Shown one piece after another: positions 648 through 27,856 of a DNA stretch of 64,000 nucleotides. The notes under the pieces were generated by a model. It had not been told where the DNA came from. It saw nothing but the letters and a program-made list of their open reading frames with translations, and did not search any database. Numbering within the stretch: position 1 is the stretch's first letter; each line of letters begins with the position of its first letter. The stretch lies in contig CAZGBM010000002.1 of assembly GCA_964523975.1 (NCBI GenBank), positions 1,324 through 65,323 on the forward strand, given 5' to 3'. This DNA is from an uncultured bacterium. GTDB lineage: Bacteria; Hydrothermota; UBA3072. The position numbers and the translations under genes are program-made.

Positions 648-1666
648 CAAAAAACAACGAAATTCAAAATAAAAAAATTCTGCTCTCTCACGGAAGCGGG
701 GGAGAAGCGATGCGTTCTCTTATAAAGGAATTATTTCTGGGTAAATTCGGCAATCCTGTGCTCAATGAACTTGCAGATTCTGCAGTTTTGCAATCAACGG
801 GAAACAAACGATTTTGCTTCACAACCGATTCCTATGTTGTAAATCCTCTTTTCTTCCCGGGCGGAGACATAGGGACCTTAGCTATTAACGGGACTGTAAA
901 TGACCTTGCGGTAATGGGAGCAAAACCTCTCTACATCTCATGTTCCTTTATCATAGAAGAAGGCCTTTCCTGGGAAACGCTGGATAAAATTACCGATTCA
1001 ATGGCAAAAGCAAGTAAAAAAGCAAAGGTACAAATTGTTACGGGTGATACAAAAGTCGTAGAAAAAGGAAGCGCCGATAAAATATTTATCAATACTTCAG
1101 GCGTCGGAATTTTACAAAAAAATATATTTCTTTCTAAAAACAATATAAAAACCGGAGATAAAATTATTATAAACGGAGAAATTGGGGCACACGGGTTAGC
1201 AGTAATGAGCATAAGAGAAAAATTTAAAACTGATATAAAAAGCGATTGTGCTCCTTTATGGGATTTAATAGAGGGAATGCTCTCCGTAGGCGGAATAAAA
1301 TTTATGAGGGACCCGACAAGAGGTGGCATTGCTTCAGTCTTTTGTGAAATTGCAGAAAACGGTATGTTTGGGATTAAAATCATCGAAGAGTTTCTTTCCA
1401 TCCCCGATAACGTGTCTTCTTTCTCGGAAATCCTGGGGCTCGATCCACTTTACATAGCAAACGAAGGTAAACTTATTGCGGTGGTATCGAAAAACAAAGC
1501 CTCTTCTATTCTTGCAAGTATGAAAAAACACCCTCTGGGGAAAAAAGCTTCCATAATAGGAGAAATTACCAAAAACAATAAAGGGAAAGTTGTACTTGAA
1601 ACAATCATTGGCGGTTTCAGAATCATCGACCGACTGATAGGAGAACAGCTACCTCGCATCTGCTAA
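644..1666 (+). CDS. hypE: hydrogenase maturation carbamoyl dehydratase HypE
   Basis: AIR-synthase-related fold with an N-terminal LSHGSGG motif. The protein ends in the conserved C-terminal PRIC motif, whose cysteine carries the thiocyanate. Gene order is hypD-hypE. Confidence 0.88.
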   Translation: MTKNNEIQNKKILLSHGSGGEAMRSLIKELFLGKFGNPVLNELADSAVLQSTGNKRFCFTTDSYVVNPLFFPGGDIGTLAINGTVNDLAVMGAKPLYISCSFIIEEGLSWETLDKITDSMAKASKKAKVQIVTGDTKVVEKGSADKIFINTSGVGILQKNIFLSKNNIKTGDKIIINGEIGAHGLAVMSIREKFKTDIKSDCAPLWDLIEGMLSVGGIKFMRDPTRGGIASVFCEIAENGMFGIKIIEEFLSIPDNVSSFSEILGLDPLYIANEGKLIAVVSKNKASSILASMKKHPLGKKASIIGEITKNNKGKVVLETIIGGFRIIDRLIGEQLPRIC

Positions 1667-1674
1667 CGGAAGCA

Positions 1675-2394
1675 ATGCTAAAGAAAAAAGACGCAATAAT
1701 TCTAAAAAGTTTTGACTTTGGCAACACAAGTAAGATAATTCATATATTGACATCCGATTCCGAGCGCCTTTCTCTCGTCGCAAAAGGAGCCAGAAGAACA
1801 AAATCACATTTTGCCGGTAATATAGAGCCATTAAATTTGGCTCAGCTTGTATATTACATAAAACCAGGTAAAGACCTGGGTACTTTAAAAGAAGCAAATA
1901 TAAAAGAAGCTCATCAAAACCTTAAAAACGATTTGTTCCGACTAGATATAGGATGGAGTTTGATATGGATAGGGAGAAAAATACCTTCTCCGATGAATGG
2001 GCTTTTTGGACTAGAAAAAAGAGCTCTTAAGTTTCTCGACAGAGGGTTCAGAGAAGAAGTGCTCGTCTATTTCTTGTTTTCTTTGTTTAAGCTGCAAGGG
2101 ATACCGCCTCAATTAGAAAAATGCGTGTCTTGCGGTTCAAAGAGATTGGATTTCTTTGACATTGATGCAGGAGGAATCAAATGTTCCGCCTGCGCACAAA
2201 AAAAACTGGTTTCTTTCAGAAATTTAGAGAAACCTTTCAAGGAACTCACAAAAGGAAGGCTTCAAGTTTGGAAAGAAGTGAACGAAAAAAACAAAAAAGA
2301 AATTCTGGATATTGTCTTTAAATACGGTATCTATCACTTGGGAGACTGGTTGAATCTCACAATAGATATTTTACCATTCGAAATTAAACCATAA
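1675..2394 (+). CDS. recO: DNA repair protein RecO
   Basis: About 240 aa with an N-terminal OB-fold-like region and a GARR motif. The C-terminal zinc finger reads CVSCGS...CSAC. Confidence 0.75.
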   Translation: MLKKKDAIILKSFDFGNTSKIIHILTSDSERLSLVAKGARRTKSHFAGNIEPLNLAQLVYYIKPGKDLGTLKEANIKEAHQNLKNDLFRLDIGWSLIWIGRKIPSPMNGLFGLEKRALKFLDRGFREEVLVYFLFSLFKLQGIPPQLEKCVSCGSKRLDFFDIDAGGIKCSACAQKKLVSFRNLEKPFKELTKGRLQVWKEVNEKNKKEILDIVFKYGIYHLGDWLNLTIDILPFEIKP

Positions 2395-3059
2395 GATCGC
2401 CAATTTTCCCAGTCGCCAAATATAGTAAGGGTCTTTTCTCCTTCTCTGAAAGAATAAGGTTCATGAAAGTGCCCCATTATTATTGCATCTATCTCTCCTG
2501 AAAATTTATTTGTGGCAAACTTTACAAAGTTACTTTCCATCAAGTTCTTATCCCTGGAATTCGTTTCCGAAAACTTAGATACAGCCTTGGCAATCCGTAA
2601 CCCCAGTTCGGGATGTATCAAAGAAAAAAGTATCCTCGAAAATTTATTAGTTAAAAGAGTTTTTATCATAAAATTAGTATCCATTTCATCTCCATGCTGT
2701 ACCAATATTCTCTTTTCGCCTATCTTAACTATCTCGGGGCCAGGATGTTTAACAATACCAAGTTCCTCGAAAAATCGCCCTATCCAAAAATCATGATTGC
2801 CAATCCAGTAATGTATGTTAATACCTTTCTCTATGGTTCTTTTCAGTTCAAAAAATATATTGAAAAAACTCTTAGGTATAAAAGATTTATATTCAAAATA
2901 AAAATCAAAAATATCGCCGAGCAAAAACAACTCGTCTCCTTCCTTTCTGACTTTACGAAGAAAAGAAAAAAAAGACTCAATTTCTTCCTTTTCTGACCAG
3001 TCCTGGAAGTGAGTATCTGAAATTATAAATACGGTTTTATTCTTCGGTATTTCCAGCAT
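2334..3059 (-). CDS. calcineurin-like metallophosphoesterase, LpxH/YbbF-like
   Basis: Carries the metallophosphoesterase motifs SDTHF, LGDIFD and GNHDF. Its 3' end overlaps recO convergently by 61 nt. Confidence 0.6.
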   Translation of the reverse strand: MLEIPKNKTVFIISDTHFQDWSEKEEIESFFSFLRKVRKEGDELFLLGDIFDFYFEYKSFIPKSFFNIFFELKRTIEKGINIHYWIGNHDFWIGRFFEELGIVKHPGPEIVKIGEKRILVQHGDEMDTNFMIKTLLTNKFSRILFSLIHPELGLRIAKAVSKFSETNSRDKNLMESNFVKFATNKFSGEIDAIIMGHFHEPYSFREGEKTLTIFGDWENWRSYGLISNGKISIVRFNQSPK

Positions 3060-3580: not shown

Positions 3581-4701
3581 GCCTCCTTCTTTTTGTATAA
3601 ATTAAGCTTCTCTTCCACATCTTTTAAAGTGGGGTCAAGCTCGATAGCCTTCTCCCAGTTTGAAATAGCTTTATCAATCATTTCCTTCTGTTCATAAGAA
3701 TAACCCAGATTCGCAAAAACAACAGCCTCTCCCTCATTCTTTTTACTTGCTTGTTTGAAGATTTCAATTGCCTCATCAATATTTCCTCTTTCAAACATTA
3801 TGAACCCTAACCCGACTTGCGCCTCAAGCACATCGGGCTTATCCTTTAAGACCTTCTCAAATATCTTCCGTGCATCCGCTTGTTTGCCTTCCTTCGAAAG
3901 GGCAATAGCAAGATTCGTTAATATTTCTACAGAAGAATCCTCCAGAAGCACGGCTTCTTTTAGTTGCCGAATCGCTATTTCTACCCTGCCGCCATAAAAG
4001 TTTTTAACAGCCATGTCATTAAGACGGCGCGCTTCTTCTTTTTTCTTCCCCTTTTCAAATTTTTCTCTCTCTTTCTTAATATCTTCCACATATTTTTCAA
4101 TTGAAACGGACAGCTCTTTCAATCCCTTCGAAGACTCTTTGAACTGTAGATACATTTCCCCAAAAACTTTTTGTAGCGCTTCTCTCAGAGCACTTATTTC
4201 TTCCTTGAATGACCCTTCAAGCTTTTCAAAAACTTCTCCGATATGAGAAATACTACTGCCTAAAATATCCACAGAGTTGTCAACTTTATCTTTCAAAGTC
4301 TTTTGAAGTTCATCAATCTTTTCTGCCATTCTCTCGGGACTGTTTTTAACGCCATCCGAAATTTTATCCATCCCGGATTGAACGACTTCTTTAAAAGAAG
4401 AAAATTCCTTTTCAAGTTTATTGTCCAAATCCTTTGAAAAATTTTCAAGAATCGAAGAAATTTGTTCCAATTTTACGTCAAGCAAAGACCTTAATTCATA
4501 GAGATCGTTATGTTGAGATTTGCTTATATTCCTAAGAACCTCACTTATCTCGGTTCTACGATTAACTATCCCATATGATGAACTCCCTTGCTTTTTTTTC
4601 TCCTGTTCCGGTTTCTTTGTTTCCTGAAATCTGTTCTTTTCATCTATGTGTCTGTCCTTATCCTGTTTTTTCTCCTTCTCCTGCTTCTTTTCTTCCTTCA
4701 T
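3577..4701 (-). CDS. coiled-coil / TPR-repeat protein with K/E-rich N-terminus
   Basis: K/E-rich low-complexity N-terminus and a central coiled coil. TPR repeats at the C-terminus. Last gene-but-one of the operon with the 1185-aa TPR protein. Confidence 0.55.
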   Translation of the reverse strand: MKEEKKQEKEKKQDKDRHIDEKNRFQETKKPEQEKKKQGSSSYGIVNRRTEISEVLRNISKSQHNDLYELRSLLDVKLEQISSILENFSKDLDNKLEKEFSSFKEVVQSGMDKISDGVKNSPERMAEKIDELQKTLKDKVDNSVDILGSSISHIGEVFEKLEGSFKEEISALREALQKVFGEMYLQFKESSKGLKELSVSIEKYVEDIKKEREKFEKGKKKEEARRLNDMAVKNFYGGRVEIAIRQLKEAVLLEDSSVEILTNLAIALSKEGKQADARKIFEKVLKDKPDVLEAQVGLGFIMFERGNIDEAIEIFKQASKKNEGEAVVFANLGYSYEQKEMIDKAISNWEKAIELDPTLKDVEEKLNLYKKKEA

Positions 4702-4707
4702 AAAATA

Positions 4708-7700
4708 TCATCTCCTTATTAGAGGTCTTATTCTCCTATACTTTTCCGTCGCTTCTCGTAACATCACCGAGATATAGGAATTCTTCTTTGCTGGCTCCAT
4801 TTCTGTTTTTGAAAGGAGGCTTAAAGCAAGCTCCGTATTTCCACTATGAAATGCAAGGAGCGCTCTCCTTTCTGCAAAAACATCTTTATTTTCCAATCTT
4901 GAAAGACGCTGATAAGCACCCCAATAATCCTTTGTTTCTTCCTGTATAACACTCAAAAGTATTTGCTCTTTTTCTTTGTCTAATTTCTTGGTTTCCTCAT
5001 AAGCTTTGTCGAACTCTTTTAATTTTAGGTATAAATAAGCTCGTTCCTCCGCAGAATCCGTCATTTTAATTTTATCAAGCAGTACCTGTTTTTTTACTTC
5101 TTCTATTTCTTTAACGCTGACTTTGCTTTTCTTACCGAGAAACCACAGGAGAACCTTTTCTTTACTACCCGGTTCTTTAAGTTTACCCAGATAAAATCCG
5201 GCTTTTTCGAGATTGCCGGAAACAAAGTAAAGATAGGCTCCTTCGGCGACAACGTCTTCTTTATCCGAATTTTTTTCGAGCAATTGTTCATATAAAGGTA
5301 ATTGCTCTTTCGTTTCTATTTTTTTTATATAATTAATTGCCGTATCCCAATCGGAAAGAGCAAGACTGATTCTGACAAGCAAAGGCACCATTTCTACATC
5401 GCCGGGCTCAATAAATTCTTTCAGCTTCTCGGCAACCTCCGGATACTCGTTAAGCAATTCTTCCATTTCGACTTTACTCTTTTGCCTATCTCCTACCTGA
5501 TAACGAATCTTGACAAGTATAATGCGCAGAGGTAAGGGAAGCTTACCGCTGAATAAACTTTCGATTTCCCTCAACAAATATTGTCCTTTTTCCTCGGAAC
5601 CATCGAAGAAGTCTTCTACTATACCAACGAGAGGTGCGTTACGTTCTTCGTTTGCGTATATTTTCAATAATTTTCCGACCAATTCGGTTGACAATTCGAC
5701 TTTAGGAAGTAATCCGTTTATCTCTTTTACTACACTGTCTCTCTTTTCTTCATTCTCCCAATAGGCTTCGATAAAATATTCCAAAGCCTTGTCTACATGA
5801 CCTAAATCTTTCTCGATATCTGCTCTCAAAACAACTATATTTTTTTCGATATTTGGATCTTCAAATTTCTCCAGCGCCTCTACAGCCAAGATTTTTAACT
5901 TTGGGTCAAAACGGATCCCTTTTTCTATCTCTTCAATACCGGAGAGATCTTCCTTATGAAGTTTAACTTTACCGTAAAAAATCCTAAGTGCAGCATGAAT
6001 AGGAGCAATATCGACAAGCTTTTCGCATTCTTCCTGCATAACCTCAACCATAGAAGGCTTTTGCCGAAAAGTCTCGTCCAAACAGGAAACCGCTTTATCA
6101 ATATTACCTGTTTCTCTATATAGTTTATAAAGAGTCATTAGTGTTTCGTATTCTGCACTTCCCTCTTTTTTTATCTCTTCAAGTACTTCGATTGCCTGTT
6201 CCGAAAGAGAATCATCCAGTCCTATCGCCCTTCTTACCAAACCCGCTGCATTTGATAATTTGCCGATTTTTGCATTTGCTCTTGCCAGAGAAAGCATTAA
6301 TTCCGGTTGTTCCTCCAATTCCAAAGATTCTAAAACCTGCGACCCCCATTTAATAGCTTCCTCATAATAATTGTTTTGAATCAAAATTTTAGTAAGTGTT
6401 TTAGAAATAATTTCGTTATCTTTCCTCTTCTTCACTTCACCTATCAAAAAAGAAGTTACTTCGCCTACGTAGTCCGTAAACTCTCTGGCAGCATTTTCTA
6501 TTTCTCTGCAACCCTTTTCGTACTCACCTTTATGGAAATACAAAGCAGAAAGAAGTTTCCGTATTCTCGGTTCATCTCGATACGCCTGCAGATATGTCAA
6601 AATAAATTTAAACCTTTCAGGGTCCTCATCTATAGCTTCTTTATAATATTTTTCCGCTTTATCAAATTCTTCCGCCAACCTGTATAATTCGGCTAAAGCA
6701 AAGGGATATGTAAAAGGCGGGAACTCCTTCCTGTCCAGATTTTTGTAAAATTTAAGAAATTGTTCGGTAAATTCCGGCTTCGATTTTACCCTTTTATCAA
6801 ACTCGGTAAGCATAACAGGTATATAATCGGTTTCCTCTCCAATTATCAAATTGACTTTTTGGGCAATCTCTTCAGGCTTTTCGGGAATCTGAAGCATTAA
6901 AGAAATAATCTCGCCTTCTGTACTTACAGGATTCTCTTTTTTAAATTTTTTGAGTTCTTCTTTTATCTGTTCGGTTTTTTCGGAATCTAAAGACATTTCT
7001 TTGTAAATTTGAAGCGCTGCCTCGGTATCTCCTTCTCTTGAAAGCAATCTTGCCTTTAGTAGTAATCCTGTTGAAGGAAGTTCTTTCCCTTCGAACATCT
7101 GATTTAAATTCTCAAGTATTGTAGTTGATGACGTGGGAGATAGTTCAAAGGCTTTTTCTAAAAGACGAACAACTTCTTCTTTCCATCCAAGGGCGCTATA
7201 AACGCTGGCCATATTAAGAAAATTATCAATCTCTTCCGGAAGCTTTTTTTCAAGTTCTTTAACTTTTTTTCCTATTCCTTCATCTGCAACAAGAGAAACC
7301 GCAGAAAGAAATTCTCTTAGCCCTTCAGAATATCTCTCTTTTTTGATATAAGCTTCAGCTAACTGTTTATGAATTATCGGGTTTCCAGGATCTTTTTTAA
7401 CCATCATCTGATATTTTTTTATTGCATCATCGACCTCAAATTCTTCAATAAGGTTCAGCGCTCTTTCATCTTTTCCTGTTTCTATCAACAACTCGCTCAA
7501 ATAATCAAGAACGTCTTTCGATTCCTTGCTGTAAGGCGATAGAAGAACGATGACTCCATCTTGCAGCTCCGAACTTACCTTCACAGCTTCTCGTAGCTTG
7601 GAAGCTGCTTCAGAATAATGTTTATCCTTAAGCAAAAATTCACCTAAACCTAATTTCAAGTTCGCATCTCCGTAATTTTCTCTTTCTGCTCTTCTTAATT

Positions 7701-19403: not shown

Positions 19404-20318
19404 TTACTTTTCCATAAGATACAGAGCAAGTAATTTTGATATTTCCTGACCTGTGTTCAACTCATAGTATGAATAACCGGGAGATGTGTTAACTTCCAGG
19501 CAGTACACCTGTTCTTGTGCAAAAATAAGGTCGATTCCGGCAAAAGAAAGCCCAAGATTAAATGTAAGTTTTACACATTTATTTAAAATGCTTTCAGGTA
19601 ATTCATATGGTTCGAGTTCAACATTATGGTCGTCGATATGAGAATATCTGTAATCCACGGCAGGTGACTTAATTTTTGTAGCCAGTGCTTTCTTGCCGAT
19701 AACATGTACCCTGACGTTAAACCCGTCTATTTTTCTTTGAAATTGTGTTGGGAGCAAGCAAACCTCATTAAGACGATTTAAATCTTCAGATGTAATTTGT
19801 TGAACGATTGAACGTTCGAAGCTAATGGATTTATAAATAACTTCTCTGTTATTATAGTCTATGAAATCTTTGGCTTCGGCAGGGTCGTTGGTTATTATGG
19901 TCGCGGGGATACTAAAATCCGCTTTTTTTATCAGCTGTGCTTGATAAGGTTTTGAGAAGTTCGAAAGCATTGCTCTTCTTCTATTAACCATGTTTACGGG
20001 TAGAATATCGAACAAATCATATAGAGACATTATTATGGATTTAGTCTTGGTAAGAAGAGCTCTATCGTTTTTTGCAGCCGGCATATCTTCGGCATCCATA
20101 AATCGCAGAAAAACGCTGCGGATATCTTTGATATCTACCGTGTCGTTTCCGACCTTAATCATACCACCTATTCCGTCTTTCCCCAGCGACCACCGCATTT
20201 GTACGCTATCAGGAAGGCTTTCCTGGTCTAGAACCAGAAAATCAGCCTTTTCTTTCTGCAGGGCCTCAATCAAAAGCCGGGTGGGAGATTCATATTTAAC
20301 GCCGCACACAAGTACCAT
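19404..20318 (-). CDS. ATP-grasp ligase, microviridin/RimK-like (second of tandem pair)
   Basis: C-terminal ATP-grasp signature GLSFAGIDLIF...CLEVNTSPGYSYYE. A central NKPYQAQL...FSIPATIITNDP block resembles graspetide ligases. Start is taken at the internal Met; the ORF track extends to 20366, overlapping the upstream gene. Confidence 0.7.
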   Translation of the reverse strand: MVLVCGVKYESPTRLLIEALQKEKADFLVLDQESLPDSVQMRWSLGKDGIGGMIKVGNDTVDIKDIRSVFLRFMDAEDMPAAKNDRALLTKTKSIIMSLYDLFDILPVNMVNRRRAMLSNFSKPYQAQLIKKADFSIPATIITNDPAEAKDFIDYNNREVIYKSISFERSIVQQITSEDLNRLNEVCLLPTQFQRKIDGFNVRVHVIGKKALATKIKSPAVDYRYSHIDDHNVELEPYELPESILNKCVKLTFNLGLSFAGIDLIFAQEQVYCLEVNTSPGYSYYELNTGQEISKLLALYLMEK

Positions 20319-20322
20319 CGAT

Positions 20323-21234
20323 CTAAATAATACAATTAACAAGAGCAATGATGATATCTGAATCATGAACGCGTAGACTGTCGAAGGATAGATTTTTTGT
20401 CATAGAATTTAGATACCATGTGCCCTCTGTGTCGATAGCAAAATAATATTCGGCAACGATAAGATTCAATGAAGAATGTATTTTTAAAAGGGATTCCAAA
20501 ATTTTTTCAGGTATCTCGGAACATTTCATTTTCTTGCCGTGCCGATTACCGTCAATAGAAGTACAAAAAATTTGATTTCCTACTGCACTTATACCGACAA
20601 ACATATTGCCGGGCAATTCACGAACCCGTACTTGATTGAAATATGTTGGGTACCGCTTTAGAAGGACTTCGCTCAATTCCATTTCGAAATATGGGTTTTC
20701 TCCCATGTCTACAAAAGATGCCAAAACCCCCTCATTTAACAATTGAGAAGCCACCATACCCGTTTCTATTATCGAATAACCCGGAACATCTATATCATAC
20801 GCTTGTGCTTTACAATACAACTCCGAAATTGTCGGCATGGCCCCGGATAATTGGTTGCTGCCGGGAGGATTAATAACGGGGCATTTCAAACTTGATAGCA
20901 TGCTGTACCATAAAGCAGTCGTCTCGGTTGCCGCATATTTTGCGTCTCTCTCGGACATATACATCCAATGCTCGGGGACAAAACCGTCAAACTCGACCAG
21001 TACGCCCTCTATTTCTTCCGAGCTTATTTTTTCGGAATGAAACAACAATTTGAAATATTCCTCTTTTTTATTCATATTGAACGTAACGGAAACATCGTTT
21101 GCGATATCGCATTGACGAAGAGTTATTACCTCTTTTCCCAACCTTTGTAGGGAATTTTTCAATTTTTCTGACACTAAGGAATTATAATCTCGCAATATTA
21201 AAATCATTATATTTCTAAAAGATCTGGCGACCAA
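20323..21234 (-). CDS. ATP-grasp ligase, microviridin/RimK-like (first of tandem pair)
   Basis: N-terminal small domain (ILILRDYNSL...GKEVITL), then a WY motif, then CPVINPPGSN, then an ATP-grasp-like C-terminal half. Adjacent and co-oriented with the second ATP-grasp gene. Confidence 0.6.
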   Translation of the reverse strand: MVARSFRNIMILILRDYNSLVSEKLKNSLQRLGKEVITLRQCDIANDVSVTFNMNKKEEYFKLLFHSEKISSEEIEGVLVEFDGFVPEHWMYMSERDAKYAATETTALWYSMLSSLKCPVINPPGSNQLSGAMPTISELYCKAQAYDIDVPGYSIIETGMVASQLLNEGVLASFVDMGENPYFEMELSEVLLKRYPTYFNQVRVRELPGNMFVGISAVGNQIFCTSIDGNRHGKKMKCSEIPEKILESLLKIHSSLNLIVAEYYFAIDTEGTWYLNSMTKNLSFDSLRVHDSDIIIALVNCII

Positions 21235-21285
21235 AACGGAACCTTAACGAAAAACAGGCATGATATTCTCATTTTTGCCGATTAT

Positions 21286-21636
21286 TTATATCTTTTTTTG
21301 ATTTTTCAAACCGGTTTTGAATACTTTAAAAGTTTCCGGAGTTTTTTTATTGAAAAAAGGCGGGAAACTACCGTGGATTTCTTTTAGTAATTTACCGTTA
21401 GATGCGTCAAATAAATAATATCGACACCTGTGCCCCCAGTTATACCCGGATTGTTCATCAATAAAAACAAAGTAACTGGGCTTTTCAAATTTTATTTCCT
21501 GGTCAACTATATCCAGTATCTCTTCTTTATGGTATATTTTTTCATCCAAATACATTACCGATGAATCTTCGCCTGAGCATTCCTCAGCATATATTTTTGC
21601 AACGTTTTTTTTAATCGTGTTTTTAACATCCCCCAT
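21286..21636 (-). CDS. small protein paralogous to the N-terminal domain of the adjacent peptidase; putative ATP-grasp substrate, precursor or regulator
   Basis: 116 aa. Residues ~25-100 align at roughly 45% identity with residues ~25-105 of the 532-aa peptidase, e.g. YFVFIDEQSGYNWGHRC versus HYVFIDEQPGMNWGHAC. Ends in FPPFFNKK followed by the tail TPETFKVFKTGLK. Confidence 0.6.
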   Translation of the reverse strand: MGDVKNTIKKNVAKIYAEECSGEDSSVMYLDEKIYHKEEILDIVDQEIKFEKPSYFVFIDEQSGYNWGHRCRYYLFDASNGKLLKEIHGSFPPFFNKKTPETFKVFKTGLKNQKKI

Positions 21637-21650
21637 TTTCTGTTTCTAAA

Positions 21651-21679
21651 ATTATAAGAGAATCATATCAGGCTGTCAA
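21651..21679 (-). promoter_or_regulatory. consensus sigma70 promoter (TTGACA-N17-TATAAT) directly upstream of the 116-aa gene
   Basis: On the minus strand the sequence reads TTGACAgcctgatatgattctctTATAAT. The -10 ends about 14 nt before the ATG at 21636. Confidence 0.55.
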
Positions 21680-21712
21680 TCCTTTAGCTGTCAGCGAGAA
21701 TGTCTATCGGAA

Positions 21713-21756
21713 CGATTATGGCAGGAGATAACTTATAGTATCTCCTGCCATAATCG
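21713..21756 (-). other. 18-bp perfect stem / 8-nt loop hairpin between the peptidase gene and the small-protein gene
   Basis: CGATTATGGCAGGAGATA-acttatag-TATCTCCTGCCATAATCG. No U-tract follows on the minus strand. Candidate RNA processing or attenuation element. Confidence 0.5.
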
Positions 21757-21809
21757 ATTTTATCGACCTCTCATAAGTCCCGAATTAATAAGTAAAGGTT
21801 TATCGGAGC

Positions 21810-23408
21810 TTATTTTTTCTTATCCTTAAATGCTTTCCCTTTAATATCGGGACGCACATTGGATTTTATGAAAGGCGTCAGCTTATTTACCGCTTTCTCC
21901 AATGCCGTTATTCTGGTACTCAATGACTGAACTTCTCTACTCAACTTTGCACTCTGTGCAGCGAACCCGGATCGAGCCCTCATCAATTGCTCTTCTCGAA
22001 TAGCAGGTATATCGACGTATGAATCGATTTCCTTCTCGAACTCCGATGTGAACATTTTTGCCTCCATCCCGAATTCTTTGAATTCTTTCATTACTTCCTT
22101 ATAGCGATCCTTCAACATTTCTTTGATACCTGACTTTTCAAATTCTTTGAACTCCTTTAGAAGTTTGATAGAGGTACAACAGCTACTCAAGAAGACAGAT
22201 TTCGAAAGGTCGGTTGACGATTCTTGCATCTGCGGGTCGTCTTCGCTTAATGCGAAATCAAAGGCTTCGTATGCAGAAATTTTGCTGTCCAGATTATCAT
22301 CAGGGGAGACGGCAAGCGCTGAACTGTCACCGCGAACACCCGCCATAGCAGAAATCCAGAGTTCTATCCAGGGGTCGAAAAACCAACCGCCTGCCGAAGA
22401 TACTTTTTCCGGAACCGCGGTTTGAATAACCGTCTTATCTGCCGGACTTCCATTAATAACCGGTGGTATAAACGAACCCGAACTGCATTGCTCCATTACA
22501 GCCAGAAGAGTTCTGAATCTTGGTAACGCGGATAGATCGGCTACAAAATCTTCCGCCCAATATTCTCCATCAGGGGTTGACATATAACCTTCGTCCGGCG
22601 TACCGCCCGGTCGGGTACTGTACCAACCATGATTATTCGTAAAGATGTACAAACAATCGTGACTTCCAATCCTCGTAGCAAGTTGACTTATTGCGTTCTG
22701 GAACCCCGTTCTGGTCCCATGTTCATTTACCTGTAGACGAAACGGCGTACCATCTACGGGATAGTCAATTGGATTGGCAAGGTCTTGTGCCGGTTCACAG
22801 AAGGCATCCCAACAGGATATATTCCAGTTGACGTTTCCGTCATGATTACAAACATAGATATCTCCGGGATTAAACCCATAAACATCCAGGAGTGTTCGAT
22901 ATAGAAATTCGAAGTCGTTAACATGTCTACAATTGGAAGAGCCCGAAAACATTATAGCATAACGGTTGCCTTGTAGCTGCCACTTAAAAGGCAGTGGTCC
23001 AAGTAGTTTGTATCCGGTTAGTTTTGCGGGTTCAAGCGGTATTCTATTCATGCGTTTATTCTTATACAGTTTCGCAATTTTCGGAACCCTTAAAGACTCA
23101 AATGTATCGGAAGGGTTTCGATTCAAGAACGGAGGAAATTTTCCGTCTATTTCGGATATAAGCTTTCCCTCTTTAGCGTCATACAATAAATGCTGGCACG
23201 CATGCCCCCAGTTCATACCGGGCTGTTCGTCAATAAAAACATAATGAGCAGGTTTTGCGACAGATATCTTCCTGTCGAAAACGTCTATTTTCGCACCCTT
23301 CTCGAATACTTTACCTTCTATGTACATAGCCGGATCTGCATGCTCACCTCTTTTGCTGAAGTATCGCTTGCTCACGTCTTCTACTATTTTTTTCTTAATG
23401 TTTTCCAT
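21810..23408 (-). CDS. legumain/clostripain-like (clan CD, caspase-fold) cysteine peptidase with N-terminal paralog-domain and C-terminal coiled coil
   Basis: Catalytic-type motifs FTNNHGW (His-Gly) and VMEQCSSGSF (compare legumain EACESGS), plus the block AIMFSGSSNCRHVNDFEFLYRTLLD-YGFNPGDIYVCNHDG (compare legumain AGSxGxxNYRHQAD...). Start placed at MENIKKK, 8 nt downstream of an AGGAG RBS; the ORF track extends to 23444. The C-terminal ~120 aa are K/E-rich coiled coil. Confidence 0.6.
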   Translation of the reverse strand: MENIKKKIVEDVSKRYFSKRGEHADPAMYIEGKVFEKGAKIDVFDRKISVAKPAHYVFIDEQPGMNWGHACQHLLYDAKEGKLISEIDGKFPPFLNRNPSDTFESLRVPKIAKLYKNKRMNRIPLEPAKLTGYKLLGPLPFKWQLQGNRYAIMFSGSSNCRHVNDFEFLYRTLLDVYGFNPGDIYVCNHDGNVNWNISCWDAFCEPAQDLANPIDYPVDGTPFRLQVNEHGTRTGFQNAISQLATRIGSHDCLYIFTNNHGWYSTRPGGTPDEGYMSTPDGEYWAEDFVADLSALPRFRTLLAVMEQCSSGSFIPPVINGSPADKTVIQTAVPEKVSSAGGWFFDPWIELWISAMAGVRGDSSALAVSPDDNLDSKISAYEAFDFALSEDDPQMQESSTDLSKSVFLSSCCTSIKLLKEFKEFEKSGIKEMLKDRYKEVMKEFKEFGMEAKMFTSEFEKEIDSYVDIPAIREEQLMRARSGFAAQSAKLSREVQSLSTRITALEKAVNKLTPFIKSNVRPDIKGKAFKDKKK

Positions 23409-23496
23409 ATAACATCTCCTTTTTATGAAATTAAATATCCCCAAATTCAGCTTTTTACAAATCTCAAATCTTTAAACCGAGTCCTTACGGGTGAGA

Positions 23497-23526
23497 ATAG
23501 TATAATAATTTTACATAATTTGTCAA
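23497..23526 (-). promoter_or_regulatory. putative promoter of the peptidase/ATP-grasp operon (TTGACA-N18-TACTAT)
   Basis: The minus strand reads TTGACAaattatgtaaaattattaTACTAT, about 90 nt upstream of the ATG at 23408. Confidence 0.3.
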
Positions 23527-24494: not shown

Positions 24495-26381
24495 CTAATC
24501 TTCAGCTATTATAGTACAGTTTTTCCCTTCTCCTTTTGCAAAGTAAAGAGCTCTGTCGGCAGCGTCTATGAGATCTGTTTTATTATGCGCGTGTTTAAAC
24601 AACTCAGCTACACCTATTGAAATCGTAACGTTAAACTTAAGCCCATCCGGAGAAATAAACTCTTTTTTTTCTATAGAACTACGCAAATTCTCTGCAATTT
24701 TATAACCCTCCATGGATGTGGTTTTCAGCAGAATAATGGCGAATTCTTCTCCTCCATATCTTGCAAGTATATCAGACGACCTTACGCTGTCTTTCATCAG
24801 CTTGCCAACCTCCCGAAGAATAAGGTCTCCGTTCTGATGACCAAACCGGTCGTTTATCATCTTAAAGTTATCGAAATCTATCATAAGCAAAGTGACAGGT
24901 TCCTCGCCGCGCTCGGCTGCTTTAATTTTATCTTCCAATATCTCCTGAAAAAACCGGTGATTATAAGCTCCGGTTAATCCATCTTTATACCTTGCTTGCT
25001 CATACAAAATAGCTTTTTCTACAGAAGAAGAAGCTATATTAGTAATAATATCGAGCAAATTCAAATCTTTCTCGTTGAAAATTGCTTTATTCTTTGAAAG
25101 AAGTAGTACCCCTCCTTCTACACCTCCCTTGAAAGGTGAAAACATTAGGGATTTAGCACCAAAATCTCTCTCTTCGGGAAACAAAATGGGTCTTTTAATT
25201 TCACCGGTAAGGTCTTCTTTACAAAAAGAAAGATTTTTCTCAAGATAAGTTGCAATGATGCTCTTTCTAAGCCCCTGATAATATCGTCTTCCGTCTTCCT
25301 CTGTGACGTGATACTCGTTGCCTTCTTTAAGCAGAAAAATCGTCCAGACGTCCTTAAAACTCTCTTTTATTGTCTCAAATATTCTTTTTCTGACTTCTTC
25401 CAATTTAATATCTCCTGTTACTCTTTCCGTAAGATTTCGAAGATAACGTAACCTGAAAACCTCAAGCATTGAAAAGTTAATATGATTATAAAGAGAAAAC
25501 AGGGTTGACAAACCTTTGACAACACTTGCTATTATCTCTTTATCTCTCTCTTCAAAAGGTATTTTCTCGATTCTGTCTACAACTAAAATTCCCATAACTT
25601 TATTATTGAACTCAATAGAACTCGCAATAAAACATTTTATATTCTCTTCGTTTTTATAATAACCCAAGTTCGGTGAGGAATTATTGAAATCATTATTAAC
25701 CAAAATACCGGAGTTTTTTACATACCAGGAGAGAGGGCCCTTATTGAGCGAAACCATTTCTTTTATCTCCCCACCGCTTTTTGCTACATGGACCTGAAAT
25801 CTATCAAGTTTATCATCTTTTATCAAAAGAACAACACTAAAGGGATTAAATAATCTGACTATTATATCCAGACTTGCGGATAAAGAGTCATGAAATTTAT
25901 CCGGTATAGCAGCCGGGATATCTTTTTCTCCGGTAATCCCCGTTCTCATTTCTTCTCCCTCGACTTTTATTTTTTTGATTGGATCAATATCTTCTTTCCC
26001 AAGTAATTTAGGCTTTACCCTGTATAAGAAAATTACCGTACCATAAAAAATCAAGTAAGGTATAAATTGTAGTTCGCCAAATAATGAAAATAACGGCAAA
26101 ATTAGCCACCAAAACTTAAGCTTTAATCCTCTCTTATTCAAGATAAAAATAGCAGGAATATATGCAACAGCAAGCGGAGACGACATACCTCCTGCCACCT
26201 GCACGGCAAAAGCTATGCCGGTAAGCGCAAAATAGTAAGATATATCCTCGATTTCTATGATAAAAAAATACAAAACGGCAAGTAGCACAACCGGAATCCA
26301 AACAGGTATTGCTAATGGGAAAGCGACTAGGAGCAGATACCCCAAAAAGAATATAACGGCAGCGCACTTATATAGATTCAT
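24495..26381 (-). CDS. membrane-anchored GAF-domain diguanylate cyclase (GGDEF)
   Basis: N-terminal multi-TM region and central GAF-like domains. The C-terminal GGDEF domain carries RYGGEEF and the downstream DRALYFAKGEG block. Confidence 0.8.
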   Translation of the reverse strand: MNLYKCAAVIFFLGYLLLVAFPLAIPVWIPVVLLAVLYFFIIEIEDISYYFALTGIAFAVQVAGGMSSPLAVAYIPAIFILNKRGLKLKFWWLILPLFSLFGELQFIPYLIFYGTVIFLYRVKPKLLGKEDIDPIKKIKVEGEEMRTGITGEKDIPAAIPDKFHDSLSASLDIIVRLFNPFSVVLLIKDDKLDRFQVHVAKSGGEIKEMVSLNKGPLSWYVKNSGILVNNDFNNSSPNLGYYKNEENIKCFIASSIEFNNKVMGILVVDRIEKIPFEERDKEIIASVVKGLSTLFSLYNHINFSMLEVFRLRYLRNLTERVTGDIKLEEVRKRIFETIKESFKDVWTIFLLKEGNEYHVTEEDGRRYYQGLRKSIIATYLEKNLSFCKEDLTGEIKRPILFPEERDFGAKSLMFSPFKGGVEGGVLLLSKNKAIFNEKDLNLLDIITNIASSSVEKAILYEQARYKDGLTGAYNHRFFQEILEDKIKAAERGEEPVTLLMIDFDNFKMINDRFGHQNGDLILREVGKLMKDSVRSSDILARYGGEEFAIILLKTTSMEGYKIAENLRSSIEKKEFISPDGLKFNVTISIGVAELFKHAHNKTDLIDAADRALYFAKGEGKNCTIIAED

Positions 26382-26512
26382 ATGAAAATAATAATTTTCT
26401 ATCTAAATATTGTCAAGGATAAAGATAAAATTTAGTGTATTTTTTGAAAAATTTTTTTATCTTACCTCTTGACATAATATTAATTTTGACAAATAATAAA
26501 CAGTACATTACT

Positions 26513-27856
26513 ATGAAAACGAGAAAGGAAAGCCAGAACGAATTCGACTGGAAGCAAATAAAGAAGGAACTCCAGAAGGAAATTAACGAATCTGCTTTTA
26601 AAGCTTGGTTTGCAAATATGGATTTGGAAGAGTTAAAGGGTGAGGATGTGTATTTTAACATTCCAAACACGTTTACCCAGCACTGGATAAAAGAACATTT
26701 TATGAATAATTTAACCTCTTCAATAAAAGAAGTTACGGGGAAACTTTATAATGTACATTTTCTTGTAAACAAAAAAACAAATTTGGAAACAAATGAACAA
26801 CAAGAAACAGAAGAGGAACAACAGAAAATACAAAAACCTTTTTTACATGATAAATACACTTTCGAGAACTTTGTTGTGGGCGATAATAGTAAGTTCGCCT
26901 ATGCTGCAGCTATGGCTGTCTCCAACGCGCCGGGCAGAGAATATAACCCTCTCTTTATATACGGGGGAGTCGGATTAGGGAAAACACATCTATTACAAGC
27001 AACTGGAAACAGAGTCTACTCTCAATATCCCAATCTTCGTATACTTTACACTCAAACAGAAGAATTTCTTAATGAAATGATAAAGTCTATTCAGGAATAC
27101 TCGACAGTACAATTTAAACGAAAGTACAGAGAAATAGACCTTCTTTTAATTGATGATATCCATTTTCTCTCGGGTAAAGAAAGATTACAGGAAGAGTTCT
27201 TTCACACATTCAACGCTCTCTTTGAAGCAAAAAAGCAAATAGTTATAACTTCCGACAGGCCCCCCAAGGAGATTTCTGGCCTTGAAGAAAGGGTTATTTC
27301 TCGTTTTCACTGGGGTTTAATGGTAGATCTTCAGCCTCCTGATTACGAAACGCGTTTAGCTATTCTGCGTTCTAAAATACAAAGCGATAATATTCAAATC
27401 AGCGACAGTGTAATTAATTATATAGCCTCCAATATAAAAAACAACATTAGAGAATTAGAAGGGTGTTTAATAAAATTATTGGCGCACGCTTCTATATATA
27501 AAACAGATATTACCGTAGAACTCGCCAAAAAAGTTCTAACTGATTTTATTAAAGAAAAAGAAAAAAGAATAACACTTGAAAAAATCATTAAATCTGTTTC
27601 CGAGTTTTATAATATAGATGCAGATGAAATAAAAGGAGGTAAAAGATCCAAAAGCGTCGCTCAAGCTCGTCAGATTGCCATTTACCTTTCAAGACACTTA
27701 ACAAATCTTTCATTAAAAGAAATCGGTAACGGCTTTGGGAAAAGAGACCATTCTACAATTCTACATTCTTTCAACAAAATCGAAAATTTAATGCGGAAAA
27801 ACAATAGGATAAAAGGGGATATTTCAACCATAAAAAGTAAATTGACGGAAACTTAA
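26513..27856 (+). CDS. dnaA: chromosomal replication initiator protein DnaA
   Basis: AAA+ Walker A motif GGVGLGKTHL and domain IV (KRSKSVAQARQIAIYLSRHLT...STILHS). Start taken at MKTRK at 26513; the ORF track's upstream extension is hydrophobic junk. Confidence 0.9.
   Translation: MKTRKESQNEFDWKQIKKELQKEINESAFKAWFANMDLEELKGEDVYFNIPNTFTQHWIKEHFMNNLTSSIKEVTGKLYNVHFLVNKKTNLETNEQQETEEEQQKIQKPFLHDKYTFENFVVGDNSKFAYAAAMAVSNAPGREYNPLFIYGGVGLGKTHLLQATGNRVYSQYPNLRILYTQTEEFLNEMIKSIQEYSTVQFKRKYREIDLLLIDDIHFLSGKERLQEEFFHTFNALFEAKKQIVITSDRPPKEISGLEERVISRFHWGLMVDLQPPDYETRLAILRSKIQSDNIQISDSVINYIASNIKNNIRELEGCLIKLLAHASIYKTDITVELAKKVLTDFIKEKEKRITLEKIIKSVSEFYNIDADEIKGGKRSKSVAQARQIAIYLSRHLTNLSLKEIGNGFGKRDHSTILHSFNKIENLMRKNNRIKGDISTIKSKLTET

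Follow-up and report, generated by a model that had tools for sequence, protein, structure and literature searches.

A graspetide-synthetase-type ATP-grasp and its degenerate paralog co-occur with a charged-repeat tail carried by a legumain-like peptidase

The DNA analysed here (the window) is a stretch of 64,000 nucleotides (nt) of contig CAZGBM010000002.1 from an uncultured bacterium of the Hydrothermota, and the system in question lies at positions 19404-23444 of the window, where the list of open reading frames (ORFs) contains four co-oriented minus-strand genes, termed g1 to g4. These encode, in order, a legumain-like peptidase with an N-terminal domain (the N-domain) and a charged-repeat tail, a stand-alone copy of the N-domain, a degenerate ATP-grasp, and a graspetide-synthetase-type ATP-grasp. 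g3 has lost the catalytic residues of g4, and comparison with approximately 170 related loci showed that the ATP-grasp pair co-occurs strictly with the tail across three unrelated families of peptidases as well as free-standing tail proteins. The original prediction, made from the sequence alone, was that a graspetide-like ATP-grasp and a legumain-like peptidase form the core of a modification-type system that has not been characterised; this was supported, and no name for such a system was found in Pfam, NCBIfam, PADLOC or the literature searched. The observation was partly confirmed and its first interpretation partly supported, in that the system is novel but the substrate had been wrongly assigned and there is one ligase, not two. 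The four genes are listed below (window coordinates; lengths in amino acids, aa).

21810-23408, minus strand: g1, 532 aa; N-domain, legumain-like C13 peptidase and charged-repeat tail
21286-21636, minus strand: g2, 116 aa; stand-alone N-domain copy, putative trans-acting inhibitor
20323-21207, minus strand: g3, 294 aa; degenerate pseudo-ATP-grasp, putative non-catalytic partner of g4
19404-20318, minus strand: g4, 304 aa; graspetide-synthetase-type ATP-grasp ligase, predicted to be active

The g1 gene starts at an ATG with an AGGAG Shine-Dalgarno sequence 7 nt 5′ of it. The g3 ORF opens at a TTG at position 21234, with homologues beginning at Met10 (the ATG at 21207); the true g3 gene is probably 20323-21207, judging from these homologues, and the JGI gene call agrees with the 294-aa start. 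Likewise, the g4 ORF opens at 20366 and its homologues begin at Met17, position 20318 (304 aa). The intergenic gaps are 173 nt between g1 and g2, 78 nt between g2 and g3, and 4 nt between g3 and g4, and the next co-oriented gene, which is dihydrolipoyl-dehydrogenase-like, follows 29 nt past g4. The four co-oriented genes are therefore present as originally described, but not all of their junctions are tiny or overlapping, and tight coupling is seen only between g3 and g4.

Searching g4 against NCBIfam identified TIGR04187 as the best model (E = 4.7e-40, residues 18-317), followed by MvdD (3.7e-26) and MvdC (3.7e-24), versus 5.8e-13 for rimK_fam and 1e-4 for Ddl, so that TIGR04187 exceeds the RimK-type models by approximately 27 orders of magnitude. 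The scores of g4 against rimK_fam (48.8, cut-off 143.4) and PRK10446 (26.4, cut-off 331) are both under the cut-off, and the RimK ATP-grasp domain is the only Pfam match above threshold (39.7 bits versus 21). The best sequence matches in the PDB are PsnB, CdnC, MdnC, AMdnB and MdnB. Within the g4 family K179, R219, D238-Y-R240, E291 and N293 are invariant; R219 (VRVHV) aligns to R213 of PsnB (VRVYV), and D238-Y239-R240 aligns to the PsnB DFR. The acid-recognising Arg213 of PsnB and the D(F/W)R loop are hallmarks of graspetide macrocyclases (10.1101/2021.03.09.434688), with the loop of g4, DYR, having Tyr in place of Phe or Trp. On the basis of these matches g4 is an intact graspetide-synthetase-type ATP-grasp that is predicted to be active, and an ordinary Ddl, GshB or RimK-type biosynthetic ligase, the outcome named at the outset as speaking against a modification system, was ruled out by the scores and the hallmark residues. 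As all scores are under the NCBIfam trusted cut-offs, g4 is placed in a separate subfamily. Homologues of g4 form 1488 clusters at E ≤ 1e-10, and the closest that is not identical (P0200, 74% identity) is assigned in its annotation to a bacterium of candidate division WOR-3.

The kinship of g3 to g4 had to be established by profile comparison, because direct BLASTP of g3 against g4 was not significant. A profile of 15 g3 sequences aligned to a profile of 16 g4 sequences over 270 columns (hhalign, 97.9%, E = 4.6e-13), and g3 gave marginal matches to the MvdD pre-ATP-grasp model (0.078), TIGR04187 (2.5e-4) and AMdnB, MdnB and MdnC (0.08-0.6). A word-indexed homologue search with g3 returned only g3 itself, and its relatives were drawn from the genes neighbouring g1 and g4 homologues. 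K179, R219, DYR and the E-x-N of g4 are all missing from g3, whose own invariant residues (NPP, ES, W) are unrelated to them, and the block of motifs originally attributed to both ATP-grasps (NKxxQL, ITNDP, EVNxSPG) is present in g4 and absent from g3. Since every catalytic invariant of g4 is lost over the 270 aligned columns, g3 is regarded as a full-length pseudo-ATP-grasp, and the description of the locus as encoding two ligases does not hold.

The peptidase assignment of g1 rests on conserved motifs and on its predicted fold, and the relevant elements are as follows.

22194-22973, minus strand: peptidase domain of g1 (aa 146-405), legumain-like, clan CD, identified by Foldseek and Pfam C13
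22626-22637, minus strand: NNHG motif with catalytic His260, aligning to SNHG of VPE-gamma; H260 and G261 at least 90% conserved
22473-22496, minus strand: MEQCSSGS motif with catalytic Cys308, aligning to LEACESGS of VPE-gamma; C308 at least 90% conserved

Alignment of g1 to Arabidopsis VPE-gamma matches IFTNNHG to IFYSNHG and VMEQCSSGS to YLEACESGS, placing Glu306 of g1 at the legumain S1 position (E-x-C). In an alignment of 70 sequences H260, G261, C308, H162, N164 and D165 are at least 90% conserved, the last three belonging to the SNxRHxND block of the legumain S1 region. The Pfam Peptidase_C13 model (PF01650) matched residues 149-338 of g1 with 19.9 bits, under the cut-off of 22.8, and precomputed PF01650 matches exist for many g1 relatives of at least 42% identity. 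The AlphaFold2 model of g1 has a predicted local distance difference test score (pLDDT) of 84.9, with the N-domain and peptidase mostly above 90 and the tail at 42-75. Foldseek comparison of this model to the PDB returned legumains, asparaginyl endopeptidases and peptide asparaginyl ligases as the first 16 matches, followed by metacaspases and the GPI transamidase PIGK; the top match was human legumain (4n6o_A, E = 3.7e-9, TMt 0.67). The g1 peptidase thus has, according to the model, a legumain fold with a His/Cys dyad, in agreement with the clan-CD, legumain-like peptidase that had been predicted, and full-length homologues of g1 form approximately 50 clusters.

The N-terminus of g1 is, as was first noticed, paralogous to g2 (residues 1-108, 40% identity, BLASTP E = 8e-30).

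23079-23408, minus strand: N-domain of g1 (aa 1-110), g2 paralog, unclassified alpha+beta, putative prodomain/inhibitor
23196-23213, minus strand: N-domain loop N66-W-G-H69-A-C71, with Asn66 as a candidate P1-like residue for a legumain-type S1 pocket

An exhaustive search with g2 yielded 159 representative clusters. The same C13-like domain is present in 52 of the 57 long N-domain proteins, and the other clusters are stand-alone proteins of approximately 110-130 aa. The core consensus of the N-domain is VFxDxxPxANWGHxCRY…FPP, in which F58, D60 and H69 never vary and P63, N66, Y73 and P92-P93 hardly do (N66 and P63 at least 90% conserved), with C71 invariant among the fusions. In the AlphaFold2 model of g2 (pLDDT 91.3) a helix is packed on an antiparallel sheet, and the Asn66 loop is long and lies between strands 54-60 and 71-77; this fold may bear a weak resemblance to cystatin and PepSY. 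None of the 59 members searched has a meaningful match in Pfam, the N-domain profile found no relative among PDB sequences, and the cystatin signature QxVxG is not in the N-domain consensus. The N-domain and g2 are probably a prodomain and an inhibitor, respectively, a proposal based on the obligatory fusion or adjacency of the N-domain to the peptidase, its putative weak cystatin/PepSY likeness of fold, its conserved Asn loop, and the free copy of a protease N-domain in a sister locus (L091, described below).

In order to survey gene neighbourhoods, the contigs of diverse g1 homologues and 80 genome loci were annotated with local hidden Markov models of the four components, and two architectures were seen. 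Architecture I comprises 68 loci with 31-39% identity to g1, of which 66 carry the fusion with an adjacent free N-domain gene and none an ATP-grasp. It occurs, among others, in Nitrosomonas, Chlorobiaceae, Acidobacteriota, Chloroflexota, Bacteroidota, Bathyarchaeia, Methanothrix and Heimdallarchaeota, and its fusion proteins end in a distinct W-rich/helical segment or in a long extra domain. The 17 distinct loci of architecture II share 42% identity or more with g1; they come from the window, Bacteroidales, Nitrospirota, Candidatus (Ca.) Sabulitectum, Chloroflexia, Bathyarchaeia, Microcystis novacekii, Myxococcales/Polyangia and others, and all 17 have g3-like and g4-like genes, adjoining one another in every case. 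The linkage is thus conserved across distant phyla, and no further gene conserved around the module across all loci was found. The pair of N-domain fusion and free paralog is ancestral. The free N-domain gene is kept in only four of the ATP-grasp loci (the window, L009, L011 and L012), whereas K/E repeats followed by the motif PF[IV]x2-6RP are present in 19 of 19 ATP-grasp-linked protein variants and in none of approximately 68 others. The ligase pair tracks the tail and not the small paralog, which contradicts the substrate that was originally proposed.

Several of the surveyed loci differ in other respects, and in two of them the cassette shows signs of decay. In L004 (9519-11630) an ISL3 transposase lies between the g1-like gene and a 5′-truncated g3-like gene. 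In L016 (9585-11390) two ORFs stand in place of each of the g3-like and g4-like genes, and the cause is a frameshift or else an error in long-read assembly. Two extra genes stand between the g3-like and g4-like genes of the Ca. Sabulitectum locus (L007, 10497-11428), encoding a Cys-rich protein of 172 aa (NNCYNYACD… motif) and a protein of 124 aa, neither with a family match. Among the fusions without ATP-grasp, some (750-808 aa) have the short W-rich tail replaced by an extra conserved C-terminal region of approximately 390 aa with the motifs …HDLYLRDNLxDHGREPLIxGGISxSPDIIV…QDNFIYLRVQNRG… (L029, L036, L039, L048, L055, L062, L069, L072, L076, L079, L083 and L090), and a Ca. Acidoferrum locus (L057, 8310-11126) has two tandem N-domain–C13 fusion genes and a free N-domain gene.

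The tail of g1, first described as a K/E-rich coiled coil, is indeed charged and is a module of short repeats followed by a conserved motif.

22023-22157, minus strand: charged short-repeat region (aa 418-462), KEFKEFEK…KEVMKEFKEF…, putative ligase substrate
21843-21920, minus strand: conserved motif STRITALEKAVNKLTPFIKSNVRPDI near the C-terminus (aa 497-522), a putative "follower" for recognition by g3/g4

Tails of this type consist of short repeats of variable copy number, either (KE-phi)n, for example KEFKEFKEYKEPKEF, or (EPKxx-phi)n, for example EPKQVFEPKQVMEPKQAM, and the repeat region in the window is a degenerate copy of these repeats of its relatives. After the repeats come a linker, the motif ExR[LIVM]xx[LIVM]Exx[LIVM]xxLxPFIxxxxRP[DE]L, and a basic end. 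Glu and Lys make up 18.6% and 15.3% of the repeats, respectively, and in 45 tails the most enriched spacing is from K(i) to E/D(i+4), with 529 pairs observed and 165 expected from shuffles (z 34.8).

The module was also found without a C13 peptidase. ATP-grasps with 41-44% identity to g4 (the sister systems, whose ATP-grasp alignment had at least 590 matches in metagenomes) have as 5′ neighbour a shorter g3-like partner of 229-251 aa, and no C13 protein. Among the 44 sister loci with at least 1.8 kb of upstream sequence, 39 have the partner and 39 an upstream tail-module ORF. Ten of the tail carriers are long, four being S8 subtilases (41-55 bits) and six NAL1/trypsin-like peptidases (weak matches), and the remainder are free-standing proteins of 140-300 aa. 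In L091 (Algibacter) a 495-aa trypsin/NAL1-like serine peptidase is encoded 5′ of the ATP-grasp genes, with KLEKVEKSEKIEK… repeats and RLSQIEQSLSALTAFIGSDLRPDL at its C-terminus, and in L092 a 235-aa protein is made solely of KPEKEx repeats and RLGELEDALERLTHFIGVDLRPDL. The 58 non-redundant instances of the motif fit the consensus, reading (T)PFI…RPD[LI]K in the C13 clade and HFI…RPDLxxGALxxE in the sister clade, so that the motif variant tracks the ligase clade. The constant trio is therefore, on sequence evidence, the tail module, the pseudo-ATP-grasp and the graspetide-type ATP-grasp, with the peptidase as a frequent but exchangeable carrier. The candidate precursor, the g1 tail, is fused to a protein and C-terminal, unlike a short peptide with an N-terminal leader, and it co-varies strictly with the ligase pair; we consider it likely that this pair has the tail module as its cognate partner.

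Two of the sister loci have additional features. L091 encodes, at 4443-4682, a free 79-aa paralog (31% identity, E = 7e-5) of the NAL1_N-like N-domain of its peptidase, the gene of which (4726-6213) the free copy immediately precedes. A free copy of the protease's own N-domain thus recurs here, although neither the protease nor the domain is related to those of the window. In L093 the K/E-repeat protein seems to be frameshifted, with the repeats and the HFIREDLRPDL motif in different frames, and a Peptidase_C25 gene (gingipain-like, clan CD, 26.5 bits) is divergent from and upstream of the repeat protein (1525-2970, minus strand; 3807-5270, plus strand).

The following mechanism is proposed. 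g1 would be a cytoplasmic, zymogen-like C13 cysteine peptidase of the legumain type, with its N-domain acting as an intramolecular prodomain/inhibitor that may offer its conserved loop, with Asn66, to an S1 pocket of the Asn type, and g2, as a free copy of this domain, would be a probable inhibitor in trans. In the ATP-grasp-linked branch the peptidase would have gained a C-terminal module of K/E repeats and motif. g3 and g4 would form a genetically fixed asymmetric heterodimer, docking on the FIxxxxRPDL helix as the equivalent of a leader or follower, and ATP-driven phosphorylation of Glu/Asp in the repeats and joining to Lys would produce isopeptide macrolactam staples. Stapling might in turn regulate or stabilise the protease, or serve the release of a stapled product. 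The heterodimer, the docking on the motif, the Lys-Glu chemistry, the inhibitory role of the N-domain and g2, and the effect that stapling may have on the protease are all inferences. That the whole mechanism applies, with a g3/g4 heterodimer stapling the g1 tail, is somewhat favoured, and for Lys-Glu isopeptide bonds specifically the case is close to evenly balanced and leans slightly against. Stapling of the tail is the most economical reading in view of four published precedents. The 22-kDa CorA has five KxxxD repeats, on which CorB, a TIGR04187 enzyme, makes Lys-Asp isopeptides, and partner-protein-dependent graspetide synthetases exist (PMC13097080); the leader motifs that graspetide ligases recognise are short and hydrophobic (LFIEDL, for example), and PsnB is an asymmetric dimer with one fully loaded subunit (10.1101/2021.03.09.434688).

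A number of observations weigh against stapling of the tail. The g4 score is far under the NCBIfam trusted cut-offs (137.7 versus 350). The window's own tail is degenerate, with only four KxxxE/D pairs and many i+1 and i+5 pairs, one subclade has period-4 K[DE]xx repeats without the i+4 spacing, and the i+4 enrichment is partly a by-product of period-3 and period-6 repeats. A tail ORF was not detected in 5 of the 44 sister loci, nor in L094. The tail could also be merely a coiled-coil element for docking or oligomerisation, the helical prediction for it being of low confidence (pLDDT 42-75). In another reading the tail is only a docking or scaffold tether, and the true substrates are peptides cut by the peptidase from other cellular proteins. 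Such an arrangement has been proposed for the peptidase-linked ATP-grasp branches 7 and 8, for which no precursor was found (PMC8939145), and in our case the motif region is predicted to be a helix with heptad-like Leu/Ile/Val on its flanks. However, many sister loci have a free tail protein and no peptidase in the operon, for which reason the tail and not the peptidase is the constant partner, and the repeats consist almost wholly of residues that are donors or acceptors for such ligases and vary in copy number like multi-core precursors. A tether is consequently judged unlikely.

The remaining explanations are each less probable again. Glu-rich tails are substrates of RimK and of tubulin glutamylases, and with the Pfam RimK domain as its sole above-threshold Pfam match g4 could be a RimK/TTL-like enzyme that adds amino acids, such as poly-Glu, to an acidic tail and forms no staples. 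This is quite unlikely, given the lead of the graspetide models over rimK_fam, the invariance in the g4 family of the macrocyclase-specific Arg and D(F/W/Y)R loop, and the basic rather than acidic C-terminus of proteins in the window's clade. Conflict and defence systems often have caspase-like effectors, and the protease might be a toxic effector held by the inhibitor domain and g2, with the ATP-grasp pair as a regulator or activator that leaves no stable product; the patchy distribution of the system in bacteria and archaea, its variable flanks and the insertion sequence (IS) elements nearby are in keeping with this. It is very unlikely all the same, since a PADLOC scan of all four proteins found nothing relevant, conserved sensor or NTPase neighbours are lacking, and the genes sit in the window among housekeeping genes near dnaA. 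A defence role would also account no better for the co-variation of tail and ligases, and it is partly compatible with stapling of the tail. The interpretation given in the original prediction, in which two active graspetide-type ligases cross-link the folded domain of approximately 100 aa shared by g2 and the g1 N-terminus, which the peptidase then processes, drew on the presence of this domain twice beside the ligases in the window and is consistent with its invariant Asp, His and Asn and its conserved loop. It is now highly improbable. g3 has no catalytic residues, 66 of the 68 more distant loci carry the pair of fusion and free copy without an ATP-grasp, and the free copy is lacking from 13 of the 17 ATP-grasp loci. 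The sister systems contain no such domain and yet have the tail in 39 of 44 loci, and the domain is not enriched in patterns of Lys/Thr/Ser with Asp/Glu.

Candidate transcription signals of the locus are listed below.

23526-23499, minus strand: sigma-70-like site TTGACA-16-TATACT (11/12), 5′ of g1; a consensus match only
21713-21756, no strand assigned: hairpin between g1 and g2, formed by a perfect inverted repeat of 18 bp
21651-21679, minus strand: sigma-70-like site TTGACA-17-TATAAT (12/12), approximately 15 nt before the g2 ATG; a consensus match only

A promoter had been placed at approximately 23.5 kb for all four genes. A site is present there, but a single operon transcribed from it is not established, because the spacer between g1 and g2 holds the hairpin and the 12/12 site. 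This spacer (21637-21809, 173 nt) has a minimum free energy of RNA folding of -53.3 kcal/mol (z -5.8), and the g2 ATG is without an obvious Shine-Dalgarno sequence. An intrinsic terminator was ruled out for the hairpin, as the minus (coding) strand has no U-tract. The spacer features may indicate a separate and nearly leaderless g2-g4 transcript, or an element for mRNA processing or stability. By sequence inspection, none of g1 to g4 has a signal-peptide-like N-terminus.

JGI contig Ga0315548_1000331 carries an identical copy of the locus, with a YjbQ-like gene on one side and, on the other, housekeeping genes at a distance of a few kb from dnaA/dnaN. In the window a gene for a large membrane GGDEF protein (24495-26381, minus strand) and dnaA (26435-27856, plus strand) lie just upstream of g1, and dnaN was seen on L001; the cassette is therefore located a few kb from the probable replication origin. 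The housekeeping neighbours are lpdA-like, RNase G and pyrimidine biosynthesis genes, and such flanks are kept in no related locus.

Graspetide ligases have so far been known for small stapled peptide natural products, and for a large orphan branch of them, linked to assorted proteases, no substrate had been named. A concrete candidate emerges from the comparison of loci, a portable K/E-repeat tail with a conserved, putative docking motif carried by proteases or small free proteins. It is a tentative proposal, somewhat short of an even chance, that a heterodimer staples this portable C-terminal module, grafted on at least three unrelated protease families (C13, S8 and NAL1/trypsin-like) and also free, and so performs graspetide chemistry on full-size proteins. 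If true, the "missing precursor" of a large orphan ATP-grasp branch (the 590 or more metagenomic matches and 1488 clusters given above) would have been found, together with a new kind of post-translational regulation or armouring of proteases and, in the C13 branch, a new prodomain/inhibitor family. Confirmation would extend graspetide chemistry from peptides to whole enzymes, offer a naturally fixed heterodimer of active and dead ATP-grasps for mechanistic study, and define two uncharacterised families, one of them the tail module and the other the N-domain that accompanies the legumain-like peptidase, together with the inhibitor-like free copy of this domain. A possible use would be a compact set of tag, ligase and partner for enzymatic protein stapling.

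Several known systems resemble parts of the locus. The g1 peptidase agrees with legumain (MEROPS C13) in fold, in the motifs of the catalytic dyad (His-Gly and Cys) and in two S1 elements, SNxRH and E-x-C, and its putative regulation has parallels in the appended domain of legumain and in the cystatin-fold inhibitor that inserts an Asn. Eukaryotic legumain differs in having a C-terminal LSAM prodomain and in being secreted or lysosomal, whereas g1 has an unrelated alpha+beta domain at its N-terminus, no signal peptide, no cystatin motifs, and only approximately 15% identity to legumain. The closest analogy for g2 is provided by SpeB/Spi pairs, in which a paralog of the prodomain is encoded beside the protease gene and inhibits the protease; these proteases are of the papain-like clan, with another fold and no ligase. 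A literature search combining ATP-grasp and legumain found nothing relevant. The tables of Carter et al. 2026 include protease-associated graspetide groups, and PF01650, Peptidase_C13 and the RPDL motif were not found in them, the matches being limited, besides noise from NMR parameters, to one unrelated microviridin-like precursor.

As for the ligase, PsnB and MdnB/MdnC are the closest sequence relatives of g4 with solved structures and share with it the acid-recognising Arg and the D(F/W)R loop. Their leader motifs, LFIEDL and PFFARFL, resemble (P/H)FIxxxxRPDL, and their precursors are multi-core. They differ in being homodimers that act on short, free leader-core peptides with an N-terminal leader, in forming mostly ester links, and in yielding secreted protease inhibitors. 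The corallotide system CorA/CorB (graspetide group 15, PMC13097080) is similar in its TIGR04187-type ATP-grasp, this being also the best NCBIfam model for g4, and in its large 22-kDa substrate with repeated K-x-x-x-acid motifs, each of which is stapled Lys-Asp in CorA. Unlike g1, CorA is a free precursor that is not fused to a peptidase; there is no pseudo-ATP-grasp partner, a 2-oxoglutarate oxygenase and a beta-lactamase-like gene are present, and the system is confined to Corallococcus. By comparison, the repeats of the window system are far shorter and more numerous, and its recognition motif is C-terminal to them.

The statement that graspetide loci have no dedicated peptidase was not borne out, as protease-linked graspetide groups and ATP-grasp branches have been published (PMC8939145; PMC13097080). 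In ATP-grasp branches 7 and 8, unrelated families of peptidases are linked to the ligase with no detectable precursor, and the substrates were proposed to be encoded elsewhere (Makarova et al. 2022, PMC8939145). Branch 8, the nearest published description, likewise has a graspetide-clade ATP-grasp beside an inactive paralog and varied peptidases, with no classical precursor, a description that fits the system found here and makes g4 a candidate member of this branch. The inactive paralog of branch 8 is described as truncated to two N-terminal domains (PMC8939145), which fits the 229-251-aa partners of the sister systems, whereas g3 is full length. Makarova et al. 2022 make no mention of C13 or legumain, of N-domain paralogs, or of a shared charged-repeat/FIxxxxRPDL tail (PMC8939145). 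Graspetide-type systems as such are already known, and what is new here is the specific substrate hypothesis.

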